Assembly (NCBI GenBank): GCA_002441305.1 | Contig: DJVT01000014.1 | Span: 2,859-66,858 of the forward strand | Source of the DNA: Candidatus Omnitrophica bacterium UBA6249 | GTDB lineage: Bacteria; Omnitrophota; Gorgyraeia; Gygaellales; Profunditerraquicolaceae | Reading direction: 5' to 3' | DNA length: 64,000 nucleotides | Part shown: piece after piece, positions 12,297-30,699 of the stretch | How the letters are laid out: the number at the start of each line of letters is the position of its first letter | How positions within the stretch are numbered: position 1 is the stretch's first letter | Program-made: the position numbers and the translations under genes | The notes under the pieces: generated by a model | Database searches by the model: none | What the model saw: the letters and a program-made list of their open reading frames with translations, nothing else | What the model was told of the DNA's origin: nothing

Positions 12297-13007
12297 TCAG
12301 GATAACTGCACTTTGACTTGTTCGCGCAGGCGGATAAAATCGCTTGCCGCAAGACCGAGAGTTTCTATGGGAGGGAATACTTTTATTGCACAGGTTCTCT
12401 TGGTTGTAAACCTCCAGCTTCCTTTTGGGATAGCGTTTCTCGTCCCTTCGATTAAAACAGGCAGGATAGGGACCTTTTCTTTTATGGCCAGCTTGAACGC
12501 CCCGTTCTGAAATTCGCCTATTCCGTCATTATCGCTCCTGGTCCCTTCCGGGAAAAATACAACCGAGACCTTCTTGCGCAGCCATCCCCCGGCTTCTTTA
12601 TAAACTCTTTTAATGCTCGATAGGTTGCCGCGCTTGAGCCTTATATGACGGGCAAGCCTCATATTCCAGCCTAAGATCGGGATCTTGAAAAGGGCATCCT
12701 TGGCTACCCATTTGAACTGCATCTTCGTCTTGTACATCAATACAATATCGGCCAGGCTCTGATGGTTGGACACAACGACGTATGTCCTTTTGTGGTCGAT
12801 ATTCTCGAGACCTCCGACCTGCACATCCCAATAAGGATTGAAAGCTATAAGGGCATCCGCCCACCAGAAGCACTGGGCATGGACAATCCTGCGCTTTTTA
12901 TCAAATGGATAAAGTATCAACGATAGGAAAGCCATGACCAGGAATAATACTATGATCAATGTAGCCCCCACTATCCATATGCCGATCGAAGATATCGACT
13001 GTTTCAT
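12297..13007 (-). CDS. plsC: 1-acyl-sn-glycerol-3-phosphate acyltransferase
   Basis: N-terminal TM helix, catalytic HX4D block (SNHQSLADI) and FPEGTRS block. Confidence 0.85.
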   Translation of the reverse strand: MKQSISSIGIWIVGATLIIVLFLVMAFLSLILYPFDKKRRIVHAQCFWWADALIAFNPYWDVQVGGLENIDHKRTYVVVSNHQSLADIVLMYKTKMQFKWVAKDALFKIPILGWNMRLARHIRLKRGNLSSIKRVYKEAGGWLRKKVSVVFFPEGTRSDNDGIGEFQNGAFKLAIKEKVPILPVLIEGTRNAIPKGSWRFTTKRTCAIKVFPPIETLGLAASDFIRLREQVKVQLS

Positions 13008-13063
13008 AATCCCAACCCGCCCCCCTGCAAAATTGTGTTTCTGACCTGAAAAAAGACTCGGTT

Positions 13064-13102
13064 AAAACAAAAGGCCCGTACTAAATATATTATAGCCGGG
13101 CC
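13064..13102 (-). terminator. rho-independent terminator downstream of cspA copy 1
   Basis: Minus strand reads GGCCCG-(18 nt loop)-CGGGCC followed by TTTTGTTTT, beginning 15 nt after the cspA stop. Confidence 0.6.
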
Positions 13103-13116
13103 TTTTGCTGTTTAGG

Positions 13117-13317
13117 TTATAATTTGACTACGTTAACAGCCTGATCGCCTTTGGGCCCTTTGGTGATTTCAAATTCCACCTGCTGACCTTCAGCTAAAGA
13201 CTTATATCCCTCACCTTGAATTGCGCTGTGATGCACGAATACATCGTTGCCGTTTTCAGGAGTGATGAATCCATAACCTTTCTGATCGCTGAACCATTTC
13301 ACTGATCCTTTTGCCAT
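13117..13317 (-). CDS. cspA: cold-shock protein, CspA family (copy 1)
   Basis: 66 aa: [69 protein letters not shown]1 (KGYGFI) and RNP2 (VFVHH) are present, and there is a strong SD (GGAAGGAGG). Confidence 0.95.
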
Positions 13318-13422
13318 TGTTTGCTACCTCCTTCCCCTTTAAATTATAGTAAACTGTTAGAAATCTGCATCACTTTTCCCTCTATAGACATGAACTTCTA
13401 ACAGGCAAACAATGACCGCAAA

Positions 13423-13477
13423 TAAAAAACCGCAAGGTTAGATCTCCTAATCCTCGCGGCCTAAGACTTCTAATCTT
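13423..13477 (-). promoter_or_regulatory. leader element of cspA-1: GATTAGA box plus terminator-like hairpin and U6 tract
   Basis: Minus strand reads AGATTAGAAGTCTTAGG-CCGCGAGG-attaggagatctaa-CCTTGCGG-TTTTTT. It lies downstream of the predicted promoter and about 105 nt upstream of the ATG. Confidence 0.5.
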
Positions 13478-13492
13478 TTTAACTACACAGTT

Positions 13493-13520
13493 AGATTACC
13501 ACATCTGTGTTATTTGTCAA
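13493..13520 (-). promoter_or_regulatory. sigma70-type promoter of cspA-1
   Basis: Minus strand has TTGACA (13520-13515), a 16-nt spacer and TAATCT (13498-13493). The same layout is conserved at cspA-2. Confidence 0.6.
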
Positions 13521-13732
13521 GCAATCATTACTGAAATTACACATTGCAATGAATTATGAAATTTAAGGGAAGTACTAATATGAAACGAATGGCAACCGCA
13601 CGGTATTTATAAGCATATATTACGGTATATTTATAGCCAATATAAGAACAATTGTGCCTTTAGAGAGATAGTTCCCATCAGAGTTTGTCCGTTTTGTCCG
13701 ACCCTTTTCAGGACTAAAAGATAGCATCCCTT

Positions 13733-16225
13733 TTAACTGGTAAAAACCAAGTTCAGGCTTTTTGCGCTTCCGGATCCCAAAACTACAAGCATCTCCCTTA
13801 ACACCGGATCAGCCGAATCACAGCTCTGCTCTTCCATCCTTAAGATATCCGAAATACAGGAGAGCATCTTTCCAGCATCGCTATCCAGGTTACCGCTAAC
13901 ATAACTTGCGGCAAAATATTCCTTCAAACGCTCAGCCGAAGGAGTAATCCCCGAATTGACCAAATGCTCTATATCCAACCACTCCTTAACCAGGTCTATC
14001 CGCTGCAGACCGACACGGGGCATTAACTGTATGCTGGCGGTCAAACTGTCCATGGAACGCGTAACGATAGGAAGCGAACGGAAATCAATGCCGCCGGGAG
14101 CGGTTGGAGATAAAGCTGATGAGTCTCTTCGAGAAACAAACTTCGGAGAATTATCGTCTTTACTCACACACCAGACACTTCTCTCGCCGCCGTAATCACT
14201 ATAAACCCCTATGGATTGCATGGAAAAATGGCCAGCTTTTTTTAAATATCTCCAAATATTCCTTCCTTGGTTAGGATTAAAAGATTGTTTAAATTCGGAA
14301 GAATTCTCCCTCCTGCTATATAACTCTTTATCATCTGACCCGATAAAGATAAACCCGTTACCCGGAATAAGTAATTTCAGCATCTCCGACGCAGTATTCT
14401 CCGTAGCATAATAACCCGCTCCGTTGAACGTCAATACGTTAAACCCTCCCTGTATTTCCTCCGGAATAAAATCTTCTTTCATGAGATCGCGATTAGCATA
14501 GACTATGACTTTTCTCTCGACCCCTTTGTAAACAAATACCGCCTCGAATTTACCTTCCGAAAACTCACGGAACCGCAAGGTATCAACGACCGACTTTCCT
14601 GTTTTAGGATCATATACCCGAGAAAGGTTAATCCGGATACCATTTTGAAATTCCTGGAAATTGAAATTTGCGCGGTCCGCTCCGATCAAAGTACCAAAAT
14701 CAGTCTCAATGAGTGGAATAGCCACATCAATGCCTACCATCTGCATCAGCCCTGTTCCTCGGTCACACTTTCTGTTATCCGGAAAACCAATGCCGATATA
14801 ATAAACTAGCGGCGGACTACTCAATTTGGATTTCAAATAATTACGGTGTTTTACCAGCACTGCCGCTTCAAACCACATCATCTGCGCAACCACAAGTTCC
14901 CACATAAAAATTTCTTCTCCGGAATTATTAACAACCCTAAGATTAGGATTACCGGAGAAATCGAAATCGTCTCTTTTAGAGAAACGCTCATCCTCGATCC
15001 CTTCGTCTATTGAGCTCTCGGACTCCTCCGCCTGCCTCTTGACATCATCTATTTCCAACCCATCCTCAGCATTAACTTCTATTTTCAGATTATCATACCT
15101 ATCCATGCCGGGAGCAACAGGTAAAACTGCCTTATTCCCAGCAGTTCCCACCGGCATAGCCAATTCCCGGGCGAATTGACTATCTTGCGGAACCAAGATC
15201 ATCCCTCCCGAGAAATAACTCCTAACTGACTGCCCATAAGGCGTATATACCGGTTCTTTGATATTGTATTGACCCTTAGCGAAGTTATCTTTATAGGCGT
15301 TAAAGTAGGTATCGACTGAATACGGAATGGGGGTCTGAAGATTAGTCAGATCCATTCGGTTAATCAATCCGGCATACGGAACATTCTTACCCTGATTTCT
15401 GGCTTTAAACCACTGAGCCAAAATAAGAGAATAATAAACCTGCCGGAGAGCGGCATACCTCCTGGAATTGTTGATCCGCCTGGTCAACTTGGGAAGAATT
15501 TCTTCCCGGATAAGCTGAGATGAATATTCATTAAGTTGTTTCTGTCGGGGGTCTCCGAAAGAATAAACCGCATCGCCTTTTAAATAATCCTGCTCCAGCA
15601 TAACCTTCAGCGAGGCCTTGTAAATGTAGGCCGAACCAGTTGACTCGCCGATAATTATTTCATCCGGGACAATCCAAGGACGGGTTAAAGTCGGGATAGA
15701 GACATTCTGACTGCCGTAAATTTCTCCCGCTTTCTTATAAAGCTTATCCCAATACTCCCTGCCTTCAGAGGTAGCCGGACTAGTGGCTTCAGCGGTATCC
15801 TTCTTTAATTGCAAATCTGCCTCCAGAAGAATCCGGCCGACTTCGGTTTTAGCCAACAATGGATCGATAATTTTATCCGGAGAGTCCGGCCGCAGGTTAA
15901 CCCAAAAGATATTATCAGGCAAGGTAACGCCGGTTAAAAAATAGCTGAGCAGATCCCTAGTGGTGTCTTTTATTTCTTGTGAAGAAACATCCTTGGCGTC
16001 TCCTTTATCCAGGACCAACCCCAGTTTATTATTAACGATGCTAAAAGATACCGATCTTAAATGCAGGGGCCGGAATTTATCCGGCGAAAGCGCGTTACCG
16101 GTGAGAGTAAAATAAGAAACAACATCCAGCTCAAGTGCAGCAACCTGGGCAAAACCGGATTGCTGAAAAACAAACAAGCCGCAAAGAATAATCGATATAA
16201 TTTTTAAACTCTTTGCTCTTTTCAT
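13733..16225 (-). CDS. large secreted protein of unknown function (830 aa)
   Basis: Uninterrupted 830-aa ORF with a signal peptide (MKRAKSLKIISIILCGLFVFQQSGFA/QV). I recognise no catalytic motif. There is an acidic linker (DDVKRQAEESESSIDEGIEDERF) and a C-terminal PGGIDFRSLP motif. The gene is flanked by about 400 nt of non-coding DNA on each side. Confidence 0.75.
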   Translation of the reverse strand: MKRAKSLKIISIILCGLFVFQQSGFAQVAALELDVVSYFTLTGNALSPDKFRPLHLRSVSFSIVNNKLGLVLDKGDAKDVSSQEIKDTTRDLLSYFLTGVTLPDNIFWVNLRPDSPDKIIDPLLAKTEVGRILLEADLQLKKDTAEATSPATSEGREYWDKLYKKAGEIYGSQNVSIPTLTRPWIVPDEIIIGESTGSAYIYKASLKVMLEQDYLKGDAVYSFGDPRQKQLNEYSSQLIREEILPKLTRRINNSRRYAALRQVYYSLILAQWFKARNQGKNVPYAGLINRMDLTNLQTPIPYSVDTYFNAYKDNFAKGQYNIKEPVYTPYGQSVRSYFSGGMILVPQDSQFARELAMPVGTAGNKAVLPVAPGMDRYDNLKIEVNAEDGLEIDDVKRQAEESESSIDEGIEDERFSKRDDFDFSGNPNLRVVNNSGEEIFMWELVVAQMMWFEAAVLVKHRNYLKSKLSSPPLVYYIGIGFPDNRKCDRGTGLMQMVGIDVAIPLIETDFGTLIGADRANFNFQEFQNGIRINLSRVYDPKTGKSVVDTLRFREFSEGKFEAVFVYKGVERKVIVYANRDLMKEDFIPEEIQGGFNVLTFNGAGYYATENTASEMLKLLIPGNGFIFIGSDDKELYSRRENSSEFKQSFNPNQGRNIWRYLKKAGHFSMQSIGVYSDYGGERSVWCVSKDDNSPKFVSRRDSSALSPTAPGGIDFRSLPIVTRSMDSLTASIQLMPRVGLQRIDLVKEWLDIEHLVNSGITPSAERLKEYFAASYVSGNLDSDAGKMLSCISDILRMEEQSCDSADPVLREMLVVLGSGSAKSLNLVFTS

Positions 16226-16500
16226 CTTAGCCTACCGGGCTTTGAGTTAAGTATGCTATATAAATAAGGAAAAACAAGGCTAAGCCAACGAAAAAAGAAA
16301 GCGTTTTCTTACAAAAATAGCAATGGGAACCATTTCTTTTAAGGAAAATGATATTTCTAAAGATAAGGTCAATTATTGCAGTTTTACCAACGGGAACAAT
16401 TCCCTAACTCTTTAGCTCCCTAGGACATAAAAATAGCGCTGATCCTATCCAAGAATCAACGCTATCATTCATTTGCCTCTCCCGTCGAGGGGGATATTAC

Positions 16501-16528
16501 TGGGATCCCTGACGGGACTCGAACCCAG
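16501..16528 (-). other. orphan tRNA 3' fragment (T-arm, 3' acceptor strand, discriminator, CCA)
   Basis: Minus strand reads CTGGG-TTCGAGT-CCCGT-CAGGGAT-C-CCA. No complementary 5' acceptor strand (ATCCCTG), D-arm or anticodon arm lies upstream, so this is not a functional tRNA. Confidence 0.5.
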
Positions 16529-16624
16529 GACTTAATCCTACTTAATTAACCCTCCTTCAATTTAACTTTACAACTCTCAGAATTCTTGCTCCGCGTTTAA
16601 AACTAGGAACCCTGATCCTACAAC

Positions 16625-16768
16625 CTATACCTTTAGTTCTCCTTCCTTTAAAATATCCCTGCATTTCAAACAAACTATCAATCTTTCTTTTTTCTCCTTT
16701 ATCACTTTGAAAAATGTTACCAAGTAATTGTGTTGTAGCTTATTCCCGCATCTCATACAGCTTTTCAT
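16625..16768 (-). CDS. small zinc-ribbon protein (47 aa from the SD-supported start)
   Basis: MKSCMRCGNKLQHNYLVTFFKVIKEKKERLIVCLKCRDILKEGELKV has two CxxC pairs. AAGGAG lies 8 nt upstream of the ATG at 16768. The track ORF starts at 16807. Confidence 0.45.
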   Translation of the reverse strand: MKSCMRCGNKLQHNYLVTFFKVIKEKKERLIVCLKCRDILKEGELKV

Positions 16769-16827
16769 TTTAGCTTCTCCTTTATTTGCCCTTATGGATG
16801 AAACCACACCTACATAGCGCTATCTTT

Positions 16828-17019
16828 TTAAGAACTACCGCATTTTTTCAAGGAAGCTGCTTTTTTACTGATCTGGCCAAATTGCCTGAGATGAACATGA
16901 CAGTATATTTCGTGGTTATAAATGCTTAAAATCTGCTTGCAGTGAGGAAATTTACACTTTCTTCCTTTACAGGAGGTTTTTATTTTTTTGATATCTATCC
17001 TTTTCCGACTATCCAGCAC
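16828..17019 (-). CDS. small Cys/His-rich basic protein (63 aa), possible zinc finger
   Basis: Contains ...CKGRKCKFPHCKQILSIYNHEIYCHVH... The only available start is GTG, with no clear SD, so the coding status is uncertain. Confidence 0.3.
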   Translation of the reverse strand: MLDSRKRIDIKKIKTSCKGRKCKFPHCKQILSIYNHEIYCHVHLRQFGQISKKAASLKKCGSS

Positions 17020-17198
17020 ATAGCATTGTTACGATCAGTCCATTCGCGGATAATCCTATACCCCATAAAACGAAAGAACGCATTACGGAAATTGAATTTA
17101 AAAAGAAACGCAAAGAACTTAGAGAAAGAATAAATTCTGTATAGGCGCTTAAGACATTAAGCTGCAGCTGCCTGGCGGATAGCATTCTCGGTTAAAAA

Positions 17199-17610
17199 CT
17201 ACGTGCTGGCCGTCATAAAGGTCCCAGTCGGTATTAAAAACCTCTTTTGTGCTATAAGATCATCATAGACCTTTGTTCCGGGAAAAGGCGTAAGCACCAT
17301 CATCTGTATAGCATCTATCTTTTGCTTGATAGCAAATTTAAGAGTTTCCCATATCGTTTCTTTACTATCGTCCTCTCCACCCAAAACGAACATCCCATAT
17401 ATTTCTATCTTGTTTTTACGTATGGAGCGGATAGCGCGTACGATATCGTCAATGGTCTGATTCTTTTTATAAGCCTTAAGCGTCATAGGATTTATCGATT
17501 CAAACCCTATACAGACGGTACTACAGCCAGCTCTATCCATGAAATTCAATAGATAGCTTGCTATAAACATTAGCTTTCTGGGCGCGAGGTTCGATAAACA
17601 CTATCTTCAT
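17199..17610 (-). pseudogene. B12-binding-domain radical SAM enzyme remnant with large internal deletion
   Basis: ATG at 17610 opens MKIVFIEPRAQKANVYSKL..., a typical N-terminus of B12-binding radical SAM proteins, and stops after 25 codons. A different frame (ORF 17199..17570) encodes only the C-terminal part of the TIM barrel (CIGFESINPMTLKAYKKNQTIDDIVRAI...YGMFVLGGEDDS...MVLTPFPGT). The cobalamin domain and the CxxxCxxC cluster motif are missing. Confidence 0.6.
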
Positions 17611-17616
17611 ATTATT

Positions 17617-17826
17617 TTATTGCGCTTTTATAACATGTATATTGATGGCGCACGGGCCCTTAGGACTGTTCTCGATATCAAACTCTACCTGCGTATCTTC
17701 GCTGAGGTCAGAAAGTTTTGTATCAATTAGGCTACTCTGGTGAAAAAATAATTCCCTTCCGTCCGTATCGTTGATGAACCCAAATCCCCTATCGCTTATT
17801 ATTTTCTTGATCTTACCCGTATGCAT
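17617..17826 (-). CDS. cold-shock-domain protein (divergent third CSD paralog)
   Basis: 69 aa: MHTGKIKKIISDRGFGFINDTDGRELFFHQSSL..., with RNP1-like RGFGFI and RNP2-like LFFHQ. Confidence 0.85.
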   Translation of the reverse strand: MHTGKIKKIISDRGFGFINDTDGRELFFHQSSLIDTKLSDLSEDTQVEFDIENSPKGPCAINIHVIKAQ

Positions 17827-17870
17827 AATTATCCTTTCTTCCTTAATAAACCGCTTTTAAAACCAGGCGA

Positions 17871-17906
17871 TTAAAAGAAAAGTCCCGGCTCTTTATGGAT
17901 GCCGGG
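17871..17906 (-). terminator. rho-independent terminator downstream of cspA copy 2
   Basis: Minus strand reads CCCGGC-atccataaaga-GCCGGG followed by ACTTTTCTTTT. Confidence 0.6.
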
Positions 17907-17925
17907 CCTTTTTGCTGCTTTCAGG

Positions 17926-18126
17926 TTATAACTTGACTACATTCGTAACCTGGTCGCCTTTAGGGCCTTTGGTGATTTCAAATTCCACCTGCTGGCCTTC
18001 AGCTAAAGACTTGTATCCTTCTCCCTGGATCGAGCTATGATGAACAAACACATCATTTCCATTTTCAGGGGTAATGAATCCATAACCTTTTTGATCACTG
18101 AACCACTTTACTGAACCTTTTACCAT
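17926..18126 (-). CDS. cspA: cold-shock protein, CspA family (copy 2)
   Basis: 66 aa, differing from copy 1 at 4 residues (A2V, A32S, A59V, V60T). Confidence 0.95.
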
Positions 18127-18232
18127 TGTTTGCTGCCTCCTTCCCTAAGAATTATAGTAAACGTTAAAAATCCCTATCATTTTCGCATGCTAGATATTGA
18201 TTTCTAACGAAGCAAACAATGACACCAAAAAC

Positions 18233-18287
18233 AAAAAACCGCAAGGCTAGATTTCCTACTCCTTGCGGCTTAAGACTTCTAATCTCT
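18233..18287 (-). promoter_or_regulatory. leader element of cspA-2: GATTAGA box plus terminator-like hairpin and U6 tract
   Basis: Minus strand reads AGAGATTAGAAGTCTTAAG-CCGCAAGG-agtaggaaatctag-CCTTGCGG-TTTTTT. Confidence 0.5.
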
Positions 18288-18298
18288 ACTATGATAAT

Positions 18299-18326
18299 AG
18301 TTTAGCACTTATTTGCCATTTGTCAA
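18299..18326 (-). promoter_or_regulatory. sigma70-type promoter of cspA-2
   Basis: TTGACA (18326-18321), a 16-nt spacer and TAAACT (18304-18299). The -35 hexamer lies inside the last codons of the upstream zinc-ribbon ORF. Confidence 0.6.
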
Positions 18327-18509
18327 GTTATTATTACCTGCCTTGTTTCTACGCTTGGCAAAACACTCCTTGCAGTAAACAGGGCGATCCTCTCTGGGCT
18401 TGAAGAAAACTTCACACTCCTTTTTACAATCCGAACAAACTGCCTTATTCATCCGCTTGTAGTTATTGCCGTAACCCCCGTTGCCGAAACCTTCTCCGCG
18501 ATATGCCAT
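18309..18509 (-). CDS. CxxC-x17-CxxC zinc-ribbon protein with Gly/Tyr/Arg-rich N-terminus
   Basis: MAYRGEGFGNGGYGNNYKRMNKAVCSDCKKECEVFFKPREDRPVYCKECFAKRRNK... The spacing CSDC-x17-CKEC matches the CxxC-x17-CxxC domain, which is often appended to DEAD-box helicases. SD is GGAGGGA. Confidence 0.7.
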   Translation of the reverse strand: MAYRGEGFGNGGYGNNYKRMNKAVCSDCKKECEVFFKPREDRPVYCKECFAKRRNKAGNNNLTNGK

Positions 18510-18573
18510 GATCCCTCCTATTTATCCACCCCCTGTTTCCTCTACCATTGTTATCGGCGGCGTTATCTCAAGA

Positions 18574-19668
18574 TTATTCTTTTACAGTTTTTGCAGTTCC
18601 TGCCAAAGAACCAGATGCGTCAATTCTCAGCTCCGCCATCAACTCTTTAACAGAAACGATCTTATCTACACGGAAAACATTACTTCCGCACATGGCAAAC
18701 CCTTTATCCATTTCTCCTCGAGAGGCATTGATCAATGCCTTGGCAATACAGTAATTAACCTTAGTTGGGTTGCAAGTCGCCAGGCAATGGTAGTCACAAC
18801 CAAAGTCGATTCTTTCTCCAGAACTTATCCTTCTGACAAAATCATTATTAATTACTCTTCCCGGCATTCCCACCGGGCTTTTAATGACGACTATGTCTTC
18901 TTTTTTGGCCGCGATAAAGGAATCCTTGTAAGCCTGCGCAACATCACATTCATAAGTGCAGACAAAACGTGTGGCCACCTGCACTCCGGAAGCGCCAAGA
19001 TTAATCATATCTGCGACATCCTTTCCGTCAAATATTCCTCCAGCTGCGATAACCGGAATATGTCCCTCCCGGTCAAATTCGCGCACTACGTCAATAACTT
19101 CCTGAAATATCTTGCGTAAGTTAAAATTCCGGTCATCGGCCAGTTCCTCCAGGCTATAACCAAGATGCCCTCCGGCCAAAGGGCCCTCCACAACTACGGC
19201 GTCCGGAAGACGCTTATATCTCCTAAGCCATACAGTACAAATCAAGCGAGCTGCCCTGGCTGAAGAAACAATCGGCACAAGCTTAGTGACATTGTTGGTA
19301 ACCAATGAAGGCAGCTTTAAAGGTAGCCCGGCTCCGGAAATGATTACGGGGATCAATTCTCGCTGAGCGGCATCCACAAGATCAGCGTAATTACTTAAAG
19401 CGCACATAATATTAACTCCAAAAGGATTCCTCGTCAATTCTCGCGTCTTGCGTATAATCTTAACCAGGGAATCACAGGAGCGGCGCTTGAAATCGGCCAG
19501 AATTCTATCGTCTTCTCCGAGACCAACCGCGGCGATGACACCCAGACCTCCTTCGTTTGAAACAGCAGAAGCCAGCGACGAAGAGGAAACCCTTACCCCC
19601 ATTCCGCCTTGAAAAATCGGAGTCTCGATTGAAAGCTCGCCCATCTTTAACGGTTTTAATCTACTCAT
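18574..19668 (-). CDS. FMN-dependent NPD/nitronate monooxygenase-family oxidoreductase (FabK-like enoyl-ACP reductase II candidate)
   Basis: 364 aa with family motifs PIFQGGMGV, GGLGVIA, VVEGPLAGGHLG, IPVIAAGGI.DG and VQVATRF, plus a Cys-rich C-terminal extension (CDYHCLATC...YC). Confidence 0.8.
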   Translation of the reverse strand: MSRLKPLKMGELSIETPIFQGGMGVRVSSSSLASAVSNEGGLGVIAAVGLGEDDRILADFKRRSCDSLVKIIRKTRELTRNPFGVNIMCALSNYADLVDAAQRELIPVIISGAGLPLKLPSLVTNNVTKLVPIVSSARAARLICTVWLRRYKRLPDAVVVEGPLAGGHLGYSLEELADDRNFNLRKIFQEVIDVVREFDREGHIPVIAAGGIFDGKDVADMINLGASGVQVATRFVCTYECDVAQAYKDSFIAAKKEDIVVIKSPVGMPGRVINNDFVRRISSGERIDFGCDYHCLATCNPTKVNYCIAKALINASRGEMDKGFAMCGSNVFRVDKIVSVKELMAELRIDASGSLAGTAKTVKE

Positions 19669-19681
19669 GTTTAACTCACCT

Positions 19682-19745
19682 CAAAAAATGAAAAAGCCGT
19701 AAAGGTTAGTTTCCGCCCCTTTACGGCTTTAGATCTCTAATCTCT
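19682..19745 (-). promoter_or_regulatory. leader element of the fabK-like operon: GATTAGA box plus 10-bp hairpin and U tract abutting the SD
   Basis: Minus strand reads AGAGATTAGAGATCTAAA-GCCGTAAAGG-ggcggaaactaa-CCTTTACGGC-TTTTTCATTTTTT-GAGGTGAG-ttaaac-ATG. Confidence 0.45.
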
Positions 19746-20214
19746 ATATATAACCTATTTTATCTTGATATAGCTTACCATAGAAATATAAAAAAAGGTA
19801 GTTTTCATTAACTATATTTTGCTCCAAAAAACTGGATGCTTTTCAAAAATAAATTGATAAAATAACGCTCGAATAGAAAAACCTTACCGTATGTTCTTTT
19901 GGCGCAAAAATTGAATATGAGAAATGGGATACCTGAGAAGATTATACTTACAATAGGCTCCTACCTTACTATCTATCCCTGGTAACCCTGAAAGGATTCG
20001 TGCTTTTCTATTTAATGTACCATTTCATCGCTGAATATTTCACAAATATCACCGATAACACCATTAAATAGCGACCATTAAATACGAGAGAAATTAGCCT
20101 ATTTTAGAGAAATTCTCTCTGAAATTTGCTATCTTTTAGGTCGGAAATTTGATCCCAGAATATTTTAAAATTCTCCGACGGGAATAACGCCCCATCTCAT
20201 AGGAACATCGACAG

Positions 20215-20291: not shown

Positions 20292-20367
20292 GGTGGCTGA
20301 CGGGGATCGAACCCGCAAGCCTTCTGAGCCACAGTCAGACGCTCTAACCAGTTGAGCTACAGCCACC
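20292..20367 (-). tRNA. tRNA-His (anticodon GTG) with encoded G-1
   Basis: Manual cloverleaf: G(-1)+GTGGCTG acceptor pairing with CAGCCAC, discriminator C, anticodon loop CTGTGGC, T-arm GCGGG-TTCGATC-CCCGT. No encoded CCA. Confidence 0.85.
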
Positions 20368-21642: not shown

Positions 21643-21716
21643 TGCGCCTGGGCCGAATCGAACGGCCAACAACCGGCTTAGAAGGCAGGTGCTCTATCCT
21701 ATTGAGCTACAGGCGC
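21643..21716 (-). tRNA. tRNA-Arg (anticodon TCT)
   Basis: Manual fold: GCGCCTG/CAGGCGC acceptor, D-arm GCTC...GAGC, anticodon loop CTTCTAA, T-arm GGCCG-TTCGATT-CGGCC, discriminator A. There is one mismatch in the anticodon stem. Confidence 0.85.
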
Positions 21717-21766: not shown

Positions 21767-21841
21767 TCGGGGCGACAGGACTTGAACCTGTGACCTCTTG
21801 CTCCCAAAGCAAGCGCTCTAGCCAAACTGAGCCACGCCCCG
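21767..21841 (-). tRNA. tRNA-Pro (anticodon TGG)
   Basis: Manual fold: CGGGGCG/CGCCCCG acceptor, anticodon arm CTTGC-TTTGGGA-GCAAG, T-arm ACAGG-TTCAAGT-CCTGT. Confidence 0.9.
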
Positions 21842-28664: not shown

Positions 28665-29067
28665 TGGTGGAGGTGGGCGGAATTGAACCGCCGTCCTTAA
28701 GTAACCGCATAGAAGCCGCTACATGCTTAGCCCCGCGTTTTAGCTTACCCTTGCAGCTCCCGCAGGGCAGGATCTGCAAATAGCAGTCTTTTAAAATTTC
28801 GCTCCGGCTGCAAAGGCGAACAGACGGAACTATCCTACTTAGGCCCTAATCCATCCCGTAGGCAGGACGGTTAGAGGCTCCGGACTTAATTAAGTCCGAA
28901 GGCTGGTACGAACATAGGCCTCGCCGTGAAAGACGGAGCCAATGTTCCTAAACGTGACACTTGCGTGTTTGCGTTTAATTTTTGTAAGGAGTTGTTAACG
29001 CGGCTAACCTTACCTCCGCGGCATGCTGCTTTTATCCGACTATCTTAAGTCGAACCCTTTCACCCCC
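28665..29067 (-). ncRNA. ssrA: tmRNA (ssrA)
   Basis: The 5' end GGGGGTGAAAGGGTTCGAC... pairs with the 3' end ...GGTTCAATTCCGCCCACCTCCACCA, giving an acceptor stem with G3:U70 and an encoded CCA. A PK1-like region is followed by AAAAATTAAAC-GCA AAC..., which parallels the E. coli resume-codon context. The predicted tag ORF is 28972..28886 and ends at a TAA inside the hairpin GGACTTAATTAAGTCC. The gene lies immediately downstream of smpB. Confidence 0.85.
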
Positions 29068-30615: not shown

Positions 30616-30699
30616 GCGGGGGTGGCGGAATGGCAGACGCGCTGGTCTCAGAAGCCAGTGACGCAAGTCATGAGGGTTCAACTCCCTCCTCCCGCACCA
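30616..30699 (+). tRNA. tRNA-Leu (anticodon CAG), type II with long variable arm, CCA encoded
   Basis: Manual fold: GCGGGGG/CTCCCGC acceptor, anticodon arm CTGGT-CTCAGAA-GCCAG, variable arm TGACGCAAGTCAT, T-arm GAGGG-TTCAACT-CCCTC, then A-CCA. Confidence 0.9.

Follow-up and report, generated by a model that had tools for sequence, protein, structure and literature searches.

Introduction

Three transcription units in a 64,000-nucleotide stretch of DNA from Candidatus Omnitrophica bacterium UBA6249 (contig DJVT01000014.1; hereafter the window, meaning the whole stretch analyzed) open with a leader that contains a terminator-like hairpin, two of them ahead of cspA genes and the third ahead of an operon encoding an NMO-family flavoprotein. 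The locus raises the question of why genes for RNA chaperones and a flavoprotein should begin with the same hairpin, and whether transcription has to pass through it before the genes are expressed. The phylum Omnitrophota is widespread in groundwater and sediments and has hardly any cultivated members. What is known of cold-shock regulation comes mainly from Escherichia coli and some Firmicutes; there, effects on mRNA stability, translational effects and effects of cold-shock proteins (Csp) form a patchwork, without a compact cis-element in common. Here we report that the three hairpins are genuine copies of one leader RNA without an earlier description. From its distribution and position, this RNA is very likely a regulated attenuator of a cold-shock-type regulon.

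Results

A covariance model of the leader (R1), run against the whole window with filters off, returned three matches only, all on the minus strand, scoring 75 bits for the copy ahead of the NMO gene (the NMO leader), 61 bits for that of cspA-2 and 55 bits for that of cspA-1; the best further sense-strand match in the window reached 16 bits. A repeat search also placed the three leaders in one family. The original prediction of three hairpins with a common layout on this strand is thereby confirmed for each of the copies, and the window holds no other. The layout consists of a box, (A/G)AGAUUAG, a short (A/G)(A/G)UCU arm, a GC-rich stem of 8-10 bp enclosing a loop of 12-14 nt with the 3' end CUAA or CUAG, and a tract of five or six U residues. 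The predicted fold energy is about -21 kcal/mol per copy, with z-scores of -3.0 to -3.8 against dinucleotide shuffles.

In the NMO leader (minus strand, as are all window features below unless marked otherwise), the 5' box AGAGAUUAG occupies positions 19737-19745 and is followed by a GAUCU arm (19731-19735; consensus AAUCU), which can be read as the 3' half of a weak hairpin, P1, or else as the partner of AGA in the loop. The terminator hairpin P2 (19696-19727) is built from the 5' strand GCCGUAAAGG (19727-19718), the loop GGCGGAAACUAA (19706-19717, 3' end CUAA) and the 3' strand CCUUUACGGC (19705-19696), and runs directly into five U residues (19695-19691). The Shine-Dalgarno sequence (SD; about 19675-19682) and the ATG (19668) lie some 10-25 nt past the U tract. 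The cspA-2 leader motif (18233-18287) has its box at 18279-18287, P2 at 18239-18268 with the stem CCGCAAGG (18268-18261)/CCUUGCGG (18246-18239) and a 14-nt loop, and U6 at 18233-18238. In the cspA-1 leader motif (13424-13478), the box AAAGAUUAG (13470-13478) precedes P2 (13430-13459), whose stem CCGCGAGG (13459-13452)/CCUUGCGG (13437-13430) includes one G-U pair and again closes a 14-nt loop, and U6 (13424-13429). A conserved box is therefore present as predicted; its description as a GATTAGA box is less apt than AAAG-N-UUAG, the family consensus.

The two csp copies had been assigned to a single duplication, which the repeat search confirms, with a spacing of 4809 bp and an identity of 85% for the coding sequences and of 84-87% for the leaders. 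The NMO copy had been credited with compensatory stem changes, and it does carry a U-A pair where the csp copies have C-G, together with one additional A-U pair. The same exchange recurs at this column pair in the wider family of 105 copies (UA 80, CG 15, UG 4, AU 2).

That family was assembled from two sets of loci searched with R1. The first comprised 80 loci with NMO orthologues (65-88% identity) in species-representative genomes, nearly all labelled Omnitrophota; the second comprised 78 loci on metagenome contigs, collected by an exact-pattern scan for the stem and loop end only (CCGTAAAGG-N6-18-TAACCTTTACGG). About 48 loci of the NMO set matched, always on the strand of the gene, and the total came to 105 distinct copies from about 48 species-level genomes and 78 metagenome contigs. 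Alignment A5 of these 105 copies is the basis of the structure and downstream-gene counts that follow. The regions upstream of the NMO genes are mutually unalignable, yet about half of them hold the same 60-nt element. Nearly all of the 78 metagenome loci match the full model including the 5' box, though the scan specified the stem and loop end alone, which indicates that box and terminator travel together. By this distribution, the leader element is apparently specific to Omnitrophota among the NMO-orthologue loci and metagenome contigs scanned.

The stem had been proposed to be a selected RNA structure, and the alignment bears this out. Stem cells are paired in 96.6% of cases, seven of the ten pairs show changes on both sides, and double-change cells number 38 against 8.1 in shuffles, with none of 500 shuffles reaching 38; the signal is lost when partner columns are slid against each other. 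RNAalifold independently predicts the P2 helix and no other. The sequence of the stem is itself unusually conserved (GCCGUAAAGG/CCUUUACGGC), and clear compensated variants occur as CCGUUCAGGG/CUUUGAACGG, as CCGCACAAAG/CUUUGUGCGG and as the csp-type CCGCAAGG/CCUUGCGG. Across the family the element is a GC-rich hairpin of 8-12 bp with the loop end CUAA and then a U tract, the latter lying directly 3' of the stem (columns 109-113 are 85-99% U) and beginning in most copies with a run of five to nine U residues. Two subtypes can be told apart. Subtype A, with the stem GCCGUAAAGG, heads NMO, helicase and second-type cold-shock domain (CSD) genes and some cspA genes; subtype B, in which GCCGCAAGG is the stem and A(U/G)UAGGA-N-AUCUA(A/G) the loop, heads cspA genes with long leaders, including both csp copies of the window. 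Together these data support selection on the RNA structure of the leader.

All 105 copies are in sense orientation to the gene downstream, and the set of downstream genes is small. The first gene 3' of the motif encodes an NMO protein in 36 copies, a CspA-type CSD protein in 20, a small Cys/His protein (usually followed by a DEAD-box helicase gene) in 19, a second CSD type (MHTGKIKK...) in 13 and a DEAD-box helicase directly in 8, with one copy each ahead of a zinc ribbon, a CxxC mini-protein and a PlsC-like acyltransferase. Thus 99 copies head one of these genes, and the remaining six run off the end of a contig. Over the 634 kb searched on both strands, no copy was found before another kind of gene, at a 3' end or in antisense orientation. 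NMO is over-represented in these counts, since the first locus set was picked by NMO orthologues; among the metagenome loci, collected without regard to gene content, NMO is well represented, and so are helicase operons, CspA and the second CSD type. As annotated, the set combines Csp, a DEAD-box helicase and membrane lipid remodelling, as in a textbook cold-shock stimulon, and is joined by uncharacterized zinc-binding mini-proteins. The compact cold-adaptation regulon envisaged in the original prediction is in this way strongly supported, and is enlarged by the second CSD protein, the DEAD-box helicase operons and the PlsC-like acyltransferase. Because the motif precedes only csp genes, DEAD-box helicase genes and a few lipid and zinc-finger genes, the whole cold-adaptation set is probably switched by controlled termination.

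The position of the motif relative to promoters and start codons bears on how such control could operate. For 77 of 101 copies, the 90 nt upstream contain a sigma-70 promoter match of at least 10/12, as do 2% of shuffled controls, and the -10 of 59 copies is extended by TGn. Between the end of the -10 and the box lie 5-24 nt, placing the start of the motif at about +1 to +15 of the transcript, and the variability of this spacing argues against a DNA operator. In the window, the cspA-2 promoter (TTGACA-16-TGcTAAACT, 18299-18326) overlaps the end of the zinc-ribbon open reading frame (ORF), and the cspA-1 promoter (TTGACA-16-TGgTAATCT) lies at 13493-13520. The predicted placement of each hairpin between promoter and SD holds; a strong canonical promoter does not for the NMO copy, where the best -35/-10 match is 8/12. 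Its extended -10-like site, TGgTAAGCT, is conserved in the orthologous locus L007, which is 88% identical.

In about 20 copies, the window NMO copy among them, only 2-19 nt separate the end of the model match from the start codon, which thus lies less than 30 nt past the stem or terminator. Spacers this short leave no space for another promoter, so that, with the motif between promoter and start codon, full-length mRNA requires read-through, as the original prediction had held. The same spacers decide against a reading in which the element is an independent small RNA (sRNA) gene, producing a 60-70 nt RNA that acts in trans or titrates a protein while the downstream genes use their own promoters. 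The strong promoters directly upstream and the efficient-looking terminator would suit an sRNA, as would a TATAAT-like word about 25 nt before the ATG in long csp leaders, and over-produced cold-box RNA is known to derepress cspA in E. coli. With no space for a promoter in the closely spaced copies, however, an sRNA is ruled out as the sole role. The TATAAT-like word degenerates to TAAATT or TTAAAG in orthologues in which the flanking leader is conserved, and a second promoter in the long csp leaders was judged unlikely for this reason; the strict sense orientation and the restricted gene set, moreover, fit control in cis. We regard the independent sRNA gene as highly improbable; a dual role, in which the attenuator also yields a titrating short RNA, may exist. 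Attenuation by a leader peptide was considered as well and rejected: the csp copies do allow an ORF starting with UUG, but its length is not conserved, and the NMO-type copies lack it.

A reading without any regulation would make the hairpins ordinary terminators of upstream genes, or a dispersed repeat of the REP/MITE kind. The cspA-2 copy would allow the former, for the zinc-ribbon stop codon lies only about 40 nt upstream of it, and this hairpin may double as the terminator of the NMO-zinc-ribbon operon. The NMO copy speaks against it: the nearest gene upstream is a tRNA gene about 480 nt away with a terminator of its own (20248-20223), which disposes of the concern that the NMO hairpin merely ends an upstream transcript. 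Across the family, the copies follow promoters and not genes, the motif is alignable where the flanking intergenic sequence is not, and in about 48 species the 105 copies are found, over the 634 kb searched, always with the same few gene families. A non-regulatory origin is accordingly extremely improbable.

The 5' box, AAAG-N-UUAG, is as strongly conserved as the stem, with positions 94-99% conserved. Its UUAG is complementary to CUAA at the 3' end of the loop and, past one mismatch, its AAAG is complementary to CUUU at the top of the 3' strand of the stem; pairing with CUAA-C-CUUU is possible in 94% of cells. AGA of the loop has its complement in the AAUCU arm, and arm column 36 covaries with loop column 77 (UA 70, UG 13, AU 9), not with its P1 partner. 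Single compensations in the long-range pairs occur in L092, L075 and L081. These complementarities suggest a pseudoknot between box and loop, or an antiterminator. A small 5' hairpin, implied in the original prediction by AGAT...ATCT, fared poorly as a structural element: P1 (AGAUU/AAUCU) pairs in 87.6% of cells, its middle pair is broken in 31 of the 105 copies, its 3' arm covaries with the loop instead, and it is absent from the RNAalifold prediction. It was therefore demoted to a possible feature.

Calculated between 5 and 37 °C, the terminator fold is more stable than the alternative fold by 7-16 kcal/mol. The terminator is thus the default, and read-through would need a factor or kinetics; an equilibrium thermometer working through a box:3'-strand antiterminator was rejected on this ground. 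A protein-independent kinetic thermosensor is a separate matter. In the cold, pairing of box and arm with the loop would be prolonged and would zip into the 3' strand before the terminator forms, and in the warm the terminator would close. The complementarity of the box to the loop and 3' strand in 94% of cells would serve such a device, as would the order of transcription, in which the loop emerges before the 3' strand and gives a pre-formed helix a head start; the regulon is the classic cold-shock set, and thermoswitches are found in csp 5' untranslated regions (UTRs) of other bacteria (PMC8034633). The thermosensor is nevertheless opposed by the energy lead of the terminator over the whole temperature range, by the fact that hairpins too gain stability in the cold, and by the weak covariation of the alternative pairing. 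RNA thermometers that act by intrinsic termination have no precedent known to us, and we consider a purely kinetic thermosensor unlikely.

The near-invariant unpaired nucleotides could alternatively form part of a small-molecule riboswitch, in which a metabolite or ion would bind the core of box, loop and stem as a pseudoknotted aptamer embedded in the terminator. The size of about 55 nt, the conserved stem and the possible pseudoknot between loop and 5' arm do resemble the small riboswitch classes; the element matches no riboswitch class in Rfam, however, and the 99 copies with an identifiable downstream gene head RNA chaperone, helicase, zinc-finger, NMO or PlsC genes, which make up no single-ligand pathway. 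A riboswitch is thus improbable.

Past the terminator, long cspA leaders (window 13318-13423 and 18127-18232; L015, L029, L032, L071, L072, L074, L079) keep three further elements, namely GUCAUUGUUU, a second hairpin, and UUUACUAUAAU just 5' of the SD. The second hairpin (window 13354-13404 and 18162-18209) uses words of the motif (CNGUUAGAA.../...UUCUAACNG), and the box could for that reason also pair with it. Short-leader cspA genes (L120, L164) lack this hairpin.

The first gene behind the NMO leader (18574-19668) encodes an NMO-family flavoprotein (Pfam PF03060) identical to one in the Candidatus Omnitrophota metagenome-assembled genome GCA_028693475.1. The label fabK-like is only loosely right, as the protein stays far below the cut-off of the FabK equivalog model (185 against 453 bits). 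The protein carries a C-terminal extension with four invariant cysteines (C291, C295, C299, C307), which may be a metal or Fe-S site, and throughout the phylum it is tightly linked to csp genes. In another Omnitrophota clade (L008, L012, L014, L019, L021, L022, L027, L035, L043, L086), a different conserved leader lies about 120 nt upstream of NMO; it consists of the hairpin AUCUAARAA-N13-UUUUUUAGAU followed by AAUUCUUUAAAAGAAAGAGAAUUAAUG, and may sequester the SD. A normal motif is present about 2.4 kb downstream of NMO in at least L019, L026, L027 and L086, and in L019 and L086, where enough sequence is left, it precedes the gene for the Cys/His protein.

The second gene of the NMO operon (18309-18509) encodes a CxxC-x17-CxxC zinc-ribbon protein (PF23477/TIGR04272), whose counterpart in L075 has its own copy of the motif. 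Next comes cspA-2 (17926-18126; CspA-type CSD protein, PF00313), which is followed by a gene for the second CSD protein (17617-17826), and this succession of the two CSD genes recurs in other loci. Between the second CSD gene and two small Cys-rich ORFs lies a 123-aa radical-SAM ORF (17199-17570) that matches only the C-terminal part of the Pfam domain and looks like a gene fragment. Further downstream in the cspA-2 gene string is a gene (16828-17019) for the small Cys/His protein (SIYNHE family), which elsewhere is a direct target of the motif and a partner of the DEAD-box helicase. This protein has the consensus K-V/I-KTSxKGRKCxFPHCKxILSIYNHExYCHxHL and no Pfam or NCBIfam match; its gene lies directly 5' of the helicase gene in most Omnitrophota loci, often with the leader motif (loci include L111, L113, L096, L097, L116, L124, L139 and L160 besides the window), and in several loci the apparent start of the frame is AUC or AUU behind a good SD. 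A second small protein of the CxxC...CxxC type (16625-16807; M-N/K-SCMRCGxKLxHNYLV...CLKC) likewise lacks a family match, and its gene in L089 (9432-9493) has its own copy of the leader motif.

The two csp regions are set apart by an 830-aa ORF (13733-16225), which has a signal-peptide-like N terminus and matches nothing in Pfam or NCBIfam. cspA-1 (13117-13317), 4.8 kb beyond the cspA-2 set, is followed by a gene for a PlsC-like acyltransferase (12297-13007), a homologue of which in L119 is itself preceded by the motif. The window also holds a tmRNA gene (28665-29067, 166 bits) and four tRNA genes, at 20292-20366 (the one with the clean intrinsic terminator at 20248-20223), 21643-21716 and 21767-21841 on the minus strand and at 30616-30696 on the plus strand.

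Discussion

The leader, at the extreme 5' end of the mRNA, probably functions as a transcription attenuator that acts in cis and is common to a cold-shock-type regulon, one in which competition between box and loop is governed by proteins of the regulon or by cold. On its own, the RNA is computed to fold into the terminator, and the default product would be a short transcript of about 60-70 nt, leaving expression of the downstream genes dependent on regulated read-through. In the competition that we envisage, either the box and arm pair with the loop and 3' strand (UCU:AGA, UUAG:CUAA, AAAG:CUUU) or the terminator closes, and the balance would be tipped by low temperature, by RNA-binding proteins of the regulon, or by both. 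CSD proteins would come first among the candidates, since E. coli Csp act on intrinsic terminators and RNA-binding proteins usually autoregulate. As for the sign of control, we prefer a scheme in which the weak AU-rich pairing of the box would hold in the cold and nucleate the antiterminator, giving read-through, and in which excess CSD protein or warmth would melt this pairing and let the terminator close, a negative feedback. The data fit the opposite sign, with Csp melting the terminator, equally well.

The assignment of CSD proteins as the effector is tentative, and we give it somewhat less than an even chance. It is favored by analogy with E. coli Csp, which prevent terminator hairpins from forming, and with Staphylococcus aureus CspA, which biases leader switches, and by the stretch GUCUUA or AAUCUUA 5' of the stem, which with the U-rich tail bears a resemblance, and a resemblance only, to the BsCspB consensus GTCTTTG/C and the bound RNA GUCUUUA (PMC7825780).

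Several observations weigh against the attenuator as proposed. About half of the NMO orthologues lack the motif (counted over 75 Omnitrophota loci). Covariation between the box and the loop and 3' strand is weak and overall falls short of significance, with 4 double-change cells against 1.4 expected, a value reached in 20 of 500 shuffles, and the exchange at columns 36 and 77 is perhaps a single event, since most of it stems from a single group of cspA leaders. In the calculation, the alternative fold is never thermodynamically competitive. Lastly, the low sequence specificity of Csp leaves a near-invariant box unexplained, so that the effector may be another one; it could be the second CSD type, the zinc ribbon, the Cys/His protein, the helicase or a small ligand.

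A further, rather doubtful possibility is that the leader by itself senses temperature or RNA-unwinding capacity and works through intrinsic termination, the box mimicking the 5' strand of the stem (AAAG), being complementary to the loop (UUAG:CUAA) and so competing with closure of the terminator. A single module of 60 nt would then coordinate the whole cold-shock regulon of the phylum. A variant of this sensor may be a riboswitch for a cold- or stress-linked ligand. If the sensor reading were true, the leader would to our knowledge be the first regulon-wide cold-shock riboregulator that acts through Rho-independent termination.

The significance of the leader lies in a single 60-nt element marking the apparent full cold-shock regulon of Omnitrophota, which allows members of the regulon to be predicted from sequence. 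Among the uncharacterized partners to which the motif points are the CxxC zinc ribbon, the Cys/His mini-protein tied to the DEAD-box helicase and, as links between RNA and membrane adaptation, the NMO/FabK-like enzyme and the acyltransferase. The leader is also a small system, accessible without cultivation, in which to ask how Csp or temperature act on an intrinsic terminator, and is a ready candidate for a new Rfam family.

The statement of the original prediction that the motif is not a described RNA family is upheld. At the gathering threshold of Rfam 15, only the tmRNA and the tRNAs of the whole window pass; at an E-value threshold, the only leader match in 13000-20000 is trpB (E = 2.8), which reflects a generic terminator; and literature searches for an earlier description of the motif found none. 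Membership in RF01766, the cspA thermoregulator, was considered and rejected, as the scores of 55.7 and 43 bits fall short of the gathering value of 78 and the coding sequence carries the alignment, the leader part being poorly aligned. The E. coli cspA 5' UTR cold box or thermosensor that RF01766 represents is comparable in being a structured 5' element of csp mRNA common to several cold-shock genes, and is implicated in Csp autoregulation and cold induction. The two share no homology of sequence or structure, however. In E. coli the element lacks the make-up of an intrinsic terminator with its U tract and exerts its effect largely through the stability and translation of the mRNA, whereas the Omnitrophota leader is one compact terminator module that also heads helicase, lipid and zinc-finger genes.

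A functional parallel is provided by E. coli CspA, CspE and CspC, which are antiterminators at the intrinsic terminators of metY-nusA-infB-pnp (Bae 2000, as cited in PMC4956666). There, as here, cold-induced genes have intrinsic terminators upstream of them, and closure of the hairpin is proposed to be prevented by CSD proteins. The E. coli targets, however, are terminators of the ordinary kind, not homologous to one another and with no conserved box dedicated to them; in Omnitrophota, every copy of the terminator comes with a near-invariant 5' box and loop, and this implies a specific switch.

[quoted passage not shown] Those switches control access to the ribosome-binding site, and hence translation, of csp genes only, and are unrelated in sequence, in contrast to the termination proposed here. 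A cold-shock RNA helicase under premature termination in its own leader is likewise known, as E. coli DeaD autoregulates through Rho-dependent termination within its long 5' UTR (PMC7430678). The Omnitrophota leader differs in being a 60-nt intrinsic terminator common to helicase, csp and NMO genes.

In its architecture, the leader resembles the HMP-PP (thiS) riboswitch, a very small, terminator-embedded aptamer with conserved nucleotides inside or next to the terminator stem; it differs in having no Rfam match, in heading RNA-chaperone genes instead of a metabolic pathway and in having no indicated ligand. Set against the known leader controls of csp and helicase genes, the novelty of the Omnitrophota leader is that one compact, sequence-conserved terminator module appears to be common to a whole regulon.

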